This document shows positions 1 through 1,224 of a stretch of DNA of 1,224 nt, one piece after another (position 1 is the stretch's first letter; each line of letters opens with the position of its first letter). A program made the translations under genes and the position numbers. The stretch is from Escherichia coli. GTDB lineage: Bacteria > Pseudomonadota > Gammaproteobacteria > Enterobacterales > Enterobacteriaceae. The DNA lies in assembly GCF_003334335.1 (NCBI RefSeq), contig NZ_QOWQ01000117.1. One strand, given 5' to 3'. A model generated the notes under the pieces. That model worked only from the letters and a program-made list of their open reading frames with translations, searched no databases and was not told where the DNA came from.

Positions 1-991
1 TAATGAAATTCCGCCGCCGCGCTCCATCACATTCCATATCTGGACGGCGTACAGTCCGTTCACCACCTGGGTACAGATTGTCTATGACTGGCTGGATGCA
101 CTGAAAGATCCCAACGGCCTGAAAACCTTTGTGAACACCACGCTGGGCGAGACCTGGGAAGAGGCCGTGGGCGAAAAACTCGATCACCAGGTGCTGATGG
201 ATAAGGTTGTGCGTTACACGGCTGCGGTGCCTTCCCGGGTGGTTTATCTGACGGCGGGCATTGACTCGCAGCGAAACCGTTTTGAGATGTATGTCTGGGG
301 ATGGGCTCCGGGAGAGGAAGCCTTTCTGGTGGATAAAATCATCATTATGGGGCGTCCCGATGAGGAAGAGACGCTGTTACGTGTGGATGTGGCGATCAAC
401 AAAAAATACCGCCATGCAGACGGAACCGAAATGACCATTTCCCGTGTCTGCTGGGACACCGGGGGGATCGATGGCGAAATTGTCTATCAGAGGTCAAAAA
501 AACACGGTGTTTTCCGGGTGCTGCCGGTAAAAGGTGCATCTGTTTATGGCAAGCCGGTGATCACCATGCCAAAAACCCGCAATCAGCGGGGCGTGTATCT
601 GTGCGAAGTGGGGACGGACACCGCAAAAGAAATTCTCTATGCCCGTATGAAAGCCGATCCCACGCCTGCGGATGAAGCCACGTCGTATGCCATCCGTTTT
701 CCTGATGATCCGGAGATTTTTTCGCAGACAGAGGCGCAGCAACTGGTCGCGGAAGAGCTTGTGGAGAAGTGGGAAAAAGGAAAGATGCGTCTGCTGTGGG
801 ATAACAAAAAGCGGCGTAACGAAGCGCTGGACTGCCTGGTGTATGCCTACGCGGCATTACGTGTGTCCGTGCAACGCTGGCAGCTTGATCTGGCTGTACT
901 GGCAAAATCCCGGGAAGAAGAGACGACCCGGCCAACCCTTAAAGAACTGGCAGCGAAGCTGTCCGGAGGAGTGAATGGTTACAGTCGCTGA
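1..991 (+). CDS. A: Terminase large subunit (lambda gpA-like), C-terminal portion; 5'-partial, reading frame begins at position 2, stop TGA at 989-991
   Basis: The frame is open from the first full codon at position 2 through 989-991. The ORF track starts it at GTG 131, but that GTG is an internal valine codon: the 43 codons upstream are stop-free, read as plausible protein (…FHIWTAYSPFTTWVQIVYDWLDALKDPNGLKTFVNTTLGETWEE…), and no Shine-Dalgarno motif precedes 131. From memory, the Trp-rich acidic sequence and the …TLKELAAKLSGG tail resemble the lambda gpA family. It is immediately followed by a gpW-like gene, which is lambda gene order (A-W-B). Confidence 0.88.
   Translation, partial: NEIPPPRSITFHIWTAYSPFTTWVQIVYDWLDALKDPNGLKTFVNTTLGETWEEAVGEKLDHQVLMDKVVRYTAAVPSRVVYLTAGIDSQRNRFEMYVWGWAPGEEAFLVDKIIIMGRPDEEETLLRVDVAINKKYRHADGTEMTISRVCWDTGGIDGEIVYQRSKKHGVFRVLPVKGASVYGKPVITMPKTRNQRGVYLCEVGTDTAKEILYARMKADPTPADEATSYAIRFPDDPEIFSQTEAQQLVAEELVEKWEKGKMRLLWDNKKRRNEALDCLVYAYAALRVSVQRWQLDLAVLAKSREEETTRPTLKELAAKLSGGVNGYSR
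965..970 (+). promoter_or_regulatory. Shine-Dalgarno sequence for the gpW-like gene, embedded in the terminase coding region
   Basis: GGAGGA lies 4-5 nt upstream of ATG 975, a perfect match to the anti-SD complement. Confidence 0.7.
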
Positions 992-1181
992 ACTGCAGGC
1001 GCTGCGTCAGGCGCGCCTTGATTTATTAACCGGTAAACGGGTGGTGTCTGTCCAGAAAGATGGTCGCAGAATTGAATATACGGCGGCTTCTCTGGATGAG
1101 CTTAACCGGGCGATCAATGATGCGGAGTCGGTACTGGGGACAACCCGGCGTCGCCGTCGTCCGCTGGGAGTGAGGTTATGA
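975..1181 (+). CDS. W: Head completion / head-tail joining protein, gpW family (68 aa)
   Basis: ATG at 975 is preceded by GGAGGA (965-970) and the ORF ends at TGA 1179-1181. The product MVTVAELQALRQARLDLLTGKRVVSVQKDGRRIEYTAASLDELNRAINDAESVLGTTRRRRRPLGVRL is 68 aa, the same length as lambda gpW. As I recall lambda gpW, it shares the core L-x-TGKRV-x-x-VQKDGRR-x-E-[FY]-TA-x-S and a C-terminal Arg cluster. It sits directly after the terminase large subunit gene. Confidence 0.9.
   Translation: MVTVAELQALRQARLDLLTGKRVVSVQKDGRRIEYTAASLDELNRAINDAESVLGTTRRRRRPLGVRL
1166..1175 (+). promoter_or_regulatory. Shine-Dalgarno region for the downstream (portal-like) gene, embedded in the 3' end of W
   Basis: GGGAGTGAGG contains GGGAG 7 nt upstream of ATG 1178 and GAGG 2 nt upstream of it; the start overlaps the W stop codon. 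Confidence 0.6.
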
Positions 1182-1224
1182 AACGAACGCCTGTCCTGAT
1201 TGATGTGAACGGCGTTCCGCTTCG
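1178..1224 (+). CDS. Start of the next head gene, probably portal protein (gpB-like) by synteny; 3'-partial (MKRTPVLIDVNGVPLR…)
   Basis: ATG at 1178 overlaps the W stop (ATGA, 1178-1181) and is preceded by GGGAG/GAGG at 1166-1175. The frame is open to the window edge. Only 15 codons are visible, so the portal assignment rests on lambda-like gene order, not on sequence similarity. Confidence 0.55.
   Translation, partial: MKRTPVLIDVNGVPL

Follow-up and report, generated by a model that had tools for sequence, protein, structure and literature searches.

The nuclease domains of terminases are RNase H-like in nature, and this is textbook knowledge. Catalytic carboxylates are found at the ends of strands β1 and β4 across the whole RNase H-like superfamily, and likewise in all terminase nucleases that have been solved (PMC3592435, PMC5389553). 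The ligands in SPP1 G2P are D266, H400, and D403 for metal A and D266 and D321 for metal B; cleavage is abolished or strongly reduced, in vitro as well as in vivo at pac, when any one of these four residues is mutated (PMC3592435). In G20c, D294, D347, and D429 are indispensable. Although D300 of G20c (equivalent to T4 D409), situated on the next strand, is a conserved residue, catalysis does not depend on its negative charge (PMC5389553). The terminase β-hairpin is "present only in viral nucleases", which separates these enzymes from cellular RuvC and RNase H (PMC5389553). The Terminase_GpA family was classed as RNase H-like in 2014 (PMC3985635). For lambda, a mutational study has been devoted to the acidic residues of the TerL endonuclease; the title of this 2019 paper by Arens, Duffy and Feiss (cited in PMC9026076) calls acidic residues critical for that endonuclease.

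The window, i.e. the whole 1,224 nt stretch of DNA analysed here, shows 98.9–99.9% identity over its full length to DNA of Escherichia phages PhiR5_1, PhiR12, 21, and lambda-like hybrids. Features annotated under the match in these phage records are the terminase large subunit, a gpW-type head-tail adaptor, and the portal. Frame 2 of the plus strand is open from nt 2, and its translation ends with the stop codon at 989–991. The genes of the window are as follows.

2..991, plus strand, C-terminal part of TerL (phage 21 gp2/lambda gpA family), 329 codons plus stop, residues 314–642
975..1181, plus strand, gpW-like head-tail adaptor (Ad1), 68 aa, from the ORF list, PHROG 75 (E-value = 3e-29), and the phage 21 annotation
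1178..1224, plus strand, start of the portal gene, from the sequence and the annotations of matching phages

The order within the window, TerL end, gpW-like gene, and portal start, is the same in phage 21 and lambda, and in phage 21 the same genes come after cosN/cosB and TerS. The gpW-like ATG at 975 is situated 17 nt within the terminase gene (975–991), as is also found in phage 21; the lambda overlap is 4 nt. The portal ATG at 1178 shares an ATGA with the gpW-like stop codon (1178–1181). Open reading frames on the minus strand and in alternative frames across 244–459 were dismissed as by-products of the strongly conserved coding frame.

In the phage 21 record, whose DNA is 98.9% identical to the window, the large-subunit gene spans 709–2637, and thus codon i of the window corresponds to gp2 residue i + 313. 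With this offset GIDSQ contains D401, RFEM contains E408, and CWD contains D465. The window begins at TerL residue 314, and the near-identical phage records encode a full-length protein of 642 aa. Residues 314–642 of phage 21 gp2 and the window protein share 324 of 329 positions (98% identity). The five substitutions are at residues 314, 391, 443, 466, and 536, and apart from these nothing functionally distinct from phage 21 gp2 was detected in the window protein. Residue 466 (nt 458–460), which adjoins the invariant D465, is Thr here and in lambda and Ile in phage 21. Lambda gpA residues 315–638 show 63% identity to the window protein, in an alignment that is gap-free before residue ~531.

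The Pfam family PF20454 (GpA_nuclease, "Terminase large subunit gpA, endonuclease domain") matches residues 10–289 of the fragment, counted from its first codon, with an E-value = 9.2e-72, and the match spans model positions 3–287 of 294. PHROG 15 (terminase large subunit) also matches the fragment (E-value = 1.3e-154); an NCBIfam search with the fragment matched no model. With both the family profile and the gene context in agreement, the protein is a lambda gpA-type TerL.

The initial annotation had singled out two peptides in the range 230–480, each a run of hydrophobic residues with Asp or Glu at its end, as segments with acids of the metal-coordinating type found in RNase H-like terminase nucleases. 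Both peptides are encoded inside that range, at nt 239–319 and 443–478. A simple regular expression for a hydrophobic run ending in D/E finds seven sites in the fragment, in which 47 of 329 residues are acidic. The pattern is weak alone, and so it needs evidence from conservation and fold in order to mean anything.

A library-wide phmmer search gave 5182 relatives at E ≤ 0.001. Conservation was read from an alignment of the query with 110 domain-covering relatives (111 sequences, the relatives being 29–48% identical to the query), which was also the input for the AlphaFold2 (AF2) model. In the 111 sequences conservation reaches 96% or more at just six acidic positions, and every other acid is conserved at 87% or less. 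The segments, the acids, and the elements of the model (by DSSP) that carry them are given below.

239..319, plus strand, segment 1, VVYLTAGIDSQRNRFEMYVWGWAPGEE, strand β1 ending near D401, a turn, β2 (bearing E408), and the beginning of β3
263..265, plus strand, D401 (GAC), Asp in 111 of 111 sequences, near the end of β1, in GIDSQ
284..286, plus strand, E408 (GAG), 96% conserved, on β2, 7 residues past D401
443..478, plus strand, segment 2, RVCWDTGGIDGE, strand β4 (148–152) ending at D465 and a loop into helix α2 (158–168)
455..457, plus strand, D465 (GAC), Asp in 111 of 111 sequences, last residue of β4, in CWD
470..478, plus strand, D470-G-E472 of GGIDGE, D470 identical in 2% of sequences (the column is mostly F/Y/H) and E472 in 7%
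752..754, plus strand, E564 (GAA), 96% conserved, directly before the terminase-type β-hairpin
755..802, plus strand, β-hairpin, fragment residues 252–267, directly before helix 274–293
821..823, plus strand, E587, 99% conserved, at the start of the C-terminal helix
821..880, plus strand, putative C-terminal catalytic helix, fragment residues 274–293, beginning N-E587-A-L-D590
830..832, plus strand, D590, 100% conserved, at the start of the C-terminal helix in the motif N-E587-A-L-D590
893..988, plus strand, C-terminal tail, fragment residues ~298–329, two short helices and an end of low confidence (DSSP, pLDDT)

The flagged segments hold seven acids, of which three belong to the six highly conserved ones of the fragment (hypergeometric P = 0.035), and they include two of its three invariant Asp. 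The initial annotation had named beforehand a lack of conservation among homologs as evidence against its own reading; D401 and D465 do not vary in the 111 sequences, E408 is kept in 96% of them, and the reading is upheld by this as well as by the fold. In segment 2 the acid of relevance is the first Asp (W-D465); D470 of GGID and the terminal E472 are unlikely to be catalytic because they are not conserved. The remaining acids of segment 1, E418 and E419, are 72% and 86% conserved in the 111 sequences. Judged from the alignment, D401, E408, and D465 are probably the acids that matter, with D470 and E472 irrelevant and E418/E419 probably irrelevant as well. The other predicted active-site acids, E564, E587, and D590, are encoded at nt 752–832, beyond the range 230–480.

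The AF2 model of the fragment has a mean pLDDT of 91.3 and a pTM of 0.83, and confidence falls below 50 only at residues 1–8. By DSSP, the N-terminal elements of the model are helices 23–34, 37–47, and 62–66. These are followed by a sheet with strands 82–90, 93–102, and 106–116, helix 122–132, and a small hairpin 135–145; next come strand 148–152, helix 158–168, strand 173–179, and then an insertion. The C-terminal part consists of a β-hairpin (252–258/261–267), the long helix 274–293, and two short helices. The predicted topology is β1(D401)-β2(E408)-β3-α1-β4(D465)-α2-β5 ... hairpin-helix(E587, D590). The model thus displays the β1-β2-β3-α-β4-α-β5 sheet and C-terminal helix of the RNase H-like/RuvC-like terminase fold, superimposable on solved nucleases, and the predicted positions of the carboxylates are the β1 end (D401), the β4 end (D465), and the C-terminal helix (E587/D590). 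On the model this is the canonical RuvC/RNase H-type arrangement of acids. The tail that follows corresponds to the C-terminal tail of lambda TerL, a portal/prohead-binding tether (PMC4856287, PMC9026076).

The best structural matches of the model are isolated nuclease domains with 164–183 aligned residues. The figures for these matches are 13.8 for E217 TerL and Sf6 gp2, 12.8 for G20c, 12.7 for HCMV UL89, 12.5 for SPP1 G2P and P22 gp2, 12.3 for HK97, 12.2 for P74-26, 12.1 for D6E, 12.0 for HSV UL15, 11.6 for T4 gp17, 11.1 for PhiV-1, and 11.0 for RB49. The next class is RuvC with 8.5, followed by other RNase H-like or actin-like folds. Foldseek searches of the model against the PDB and BFVD give the same picture, i.e. 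terminase nucleases. From the structural matches, the Pfam match, and Foldseek it follows that the region is the nuclease and not the end of the ATPase, a choice that had been left open.

An alignment to solved terminase nucleases had been proposed as a check. The fold of the model matches these nucleases, T4, SPP1, and P22 included, but alignments by hhalign of the GpA nuclease profile with the single sequences of Sf6 gp2, SPP1 G2P, and T4 gp17 give a probability below 1%. Against a 76-sequence profile of Sf6-family nucleases the probability is also below 1%, whether the query is the whole domain, only the core, or only the C-terminal segment. In the insignificant alignments of the C-terminal pieces, NEALD is placed beside NHTID of SPP1 and NLAD of Sf6, which is suggestive only; in the insignificant alignment with SPP1, β4 is mis-registered and D465 is out of register with D321. 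In a statistically insignificant hhalign alignment, E564 is also found opposite a Glu that the Sf6 family has at the corresponding place (LTAE vs. LRSE/LFAE). Kinship to the solved terminase nuclease families is visible at the fold level only, as is usual between terminase families.

Neither the fragment nor the family profile, searched against PDB sequences, gave a terminase or a GpA-family structure. The matches obtained were set aside; these were a chance match to PilT and zinc-ribbon entries that match the N-terminal part of the profile, outside the window. In the ATPase half, also outside the window, a zinc-ribbon-like sequence, CPxCG...CxxC, is present at residues ~240–279 of phage 21 gp2 and lambda gpA. 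The family profile matches the TFIIS zinc ribbon 1qyp with an E-value = 0.0019. A CxxC...CxxC pattern is found in 71 of 93 full-length homologs, and lambda and phage 21 display CPHC plus CEHxxC.

It is highly probable (roughly 0.9) that the two segments carry D401 and D465 of the RuvC/RNase H-like nuclease active site of a phage-21/lambda-type TerL, in the arrangement proposed. An assignment of metal ligands is put forward because local contexts and spacing parallel those of the known triads. By analogy with SPP1, G20c, and T4, D401 at the β1 end would provide the carboxylate at the centre, bridging both divalent metal ions (A and B), and D465, the last residue of β4, would complete site B. 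Site A, which would activate the attacking water, would be completed by the pair E587 and D590 with which the C-terminal helix opens. E408 on β2 may be an accessory or second-shell acid, like T4 D409 and G20c D300, and E564 before the β-hairpin may be a conserved accessory acid. The clustering of the carboxylates and the binding of two divalent metal ions would be as in the structures and mutants of SPP1 and G20c. By analogy with the lambda literature, the small subunit bound at cosB would position two such nuclease domains, and these would nick cosN on its two strands, 12 bp apart.

A wider form of this reading is put forward tentatively, and is more doubtful than probable. The acidic constellation may be larger than the canonical triad, with six acids in total and with E587 and D590, in a RuvC-like i/i+3 arrangement, both ligating metal A. 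E564, at the β-hairpin base, would then be specific to the family and might serve in site-specific cosN nicking or strand separation. The lambda literature gives the metal role to E586 and is not known to give it to D589. Since E586 is the residue assigned there, D590 (lambda D589) is perhaps an under-appreciated ligand.

The region could also be the nuclease domain with the flagged conserved acids in structural roles (salt bridges), so that catalysis would depend on residues elsewhere, e.g. only E564, E587, and D590. This is improbable. In its favour, the placement of the acids is read from the model topology, and profile alignments to the solved nucleases are insignificant. However, D401 and D465 are invariant across sequences that are only 29–48% identical to the query. 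Moreover, lambda mutagenesis (that of Arens and co-workers) is said to have found D401 and D465 critical; the abstract reportedly gives D401, E408, D465, E563, and E586 as the critical lambda residues, and these residues match five of the six conserved acids here after the +1 shift. D401 and D465 are also situated at the ends of β1 and β4, which are the positions of catalytic carboxylates (PMC3592435, PMC5389553). A literature search for lambda gpA D401, E586, and D589 gave almost nothing relevant in the limited library covered, which also yielded no experiment done with the window protein itself.

A still less probable reading places the segments at the end of the ATPase/translocase domain or in its lid, where the acids would serve ATP hydrolysis in a Walker B-like role. 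A P-loop-like motif of gpA, KGASVYGKP (K497), is found nearby (window 530–556, fragment residues 177–185, full-length residues 490–498), and this motif was discussed historically as an ATP-binding site. In the model it directly follows β5 of the predicted RNase H-like fold and is not part of a P-loop NTPase fold. Homologs keep G491 without exception and P498 at 90%, but at position 497 only 36% of them have Lys (25% have Arg). A review describes a putative Walker A motif in gpA, residues unspecified, in which mutation affects helicase activity only. Work cited in PMC3074133 and PMC7229814 (Ortega et al. 2007) is described there as placing an ATP site within lambda gpA's maturation domain. Against this reading, Pfam assigns fragment residues 10–289 to the GpA endonuclease domain, the strand order of the model is RNase H-like and not P-loop-like, and the structural matches are to isolated nuclease domains; together these effectively refute it. 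Least probable of all is that the segments have no special meaning, given that any acidic protein of 329 residues has hydrophobic runs followed by D/E (seven sites here) and that four of the seven acids in the segments are not strongly conserved; the enrichment for highly conserved acids and invariant Asp refutes this for D401, E408, and D465, while for D470 and E472 it holds.

Other parts of the fragment also show features of note. The stretch KKRRNEALDCLVYAYAALRVSVQRWQLDL (window 809–900, fragment residues ~270–300) is the one read as a basic-region/leucine-zipper in the older lambda literature. Its first part (274–293) is, in the model, the putative catalytic C-terminal helix with E587 and D590. 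In lambda TerL, a coiled-coil dimerisation helix is situated distal to the endonuclease centre (PMC9026076). At the other end, fragment residues 1–63 (window 2–190) form helices ahead of the nuclease sheet and display the strongly conserved sequences YSP and FVNTxLGExWE (N358 99%, E363 87%). Confidence is lower at residues 51–60 (mean pLDDT 72). This helical N-terminal part (~60 residues) is a possible linker or lid joining ATPase and nuclease.

The finding amounts to recognising, correctly, an active site that was already known, and the gene that holds it nearly copies a classical one from phage. With the window near-identical to the phage 21 terminase gene, it carries little weight beyond correct annotation. 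What is gained is that the choice between nuclease and ATPase is resolved, the flagged acids are sorted, and the rest of the predicted active site is located at nt 752–832.

In comparison with known terminases, D401, E408, and D465 are found at the same numbering in phage 21 gp2 and lambda gpA, and E564, E587, and D590 here are E563, E586, and D589 in lambda gpA (+1 shift). The relation to SPP1 G2P and Sf6 gp2 (Terminase_3/PBSX; 2wc9, 5c12) is more distant, with 9–13% identity to the window protein. Position and context of D401 resemble those of T4 D401, SPP1 D266, Sf6 D244, and G20c D294; the first strand with its Asp is vyltagiD here, irqglD in SPP1, kyiatlD in T4, and avvsahD in Sf6. Likewise D465 at the β4 end resembles SPP1 D321, T4 E458, Sf6 D296, and G20c D347, and the second strand with its acid is isrvcwD here, sariiaD in SPP1, cpvyiE in T4, and dhylwD in Sf6. 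The spacing from the first to the second acid is 64 residues here and 52–57 in Sf6, SPP1, and T4. E408 is found 7 residues after the β1 Asp, compared with 8 for T4 D409 and 6 for G20c D300.

In the C-terminal helix the motif is NEALDCLVYA, compared with NHTIDATRYA in SPP1 (N-H400-T-I-D403), and its pattern, N-E-x-x-D-x-x-x-Y-A, mirrors that of SPP1. A GpA Glu (E587) occupies the position of SPP1 His400. GpA also differs from SPP1 and Sf6 in a ~70-residue insertion between β5 and the hairpin and in the extra conserved acids E408 and E564. The SPP1 and Sf6 enzymes are headful (pac) terminases, whereas cleavage by gpA is specific to a cos site. In T4 gp17 and G20c/P74-26 TerL (3cpe, 5m1f, 5tge) the acids of the helix stand side by side (H-D-D), whereas E587 and D590 of the window protein have i, i+3 spacing. 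RuvC resolvase is without the terminase β-hairpin and without an ATPase partner domain and acts on another substrate, and the window protein does not belong to the RuvC family.
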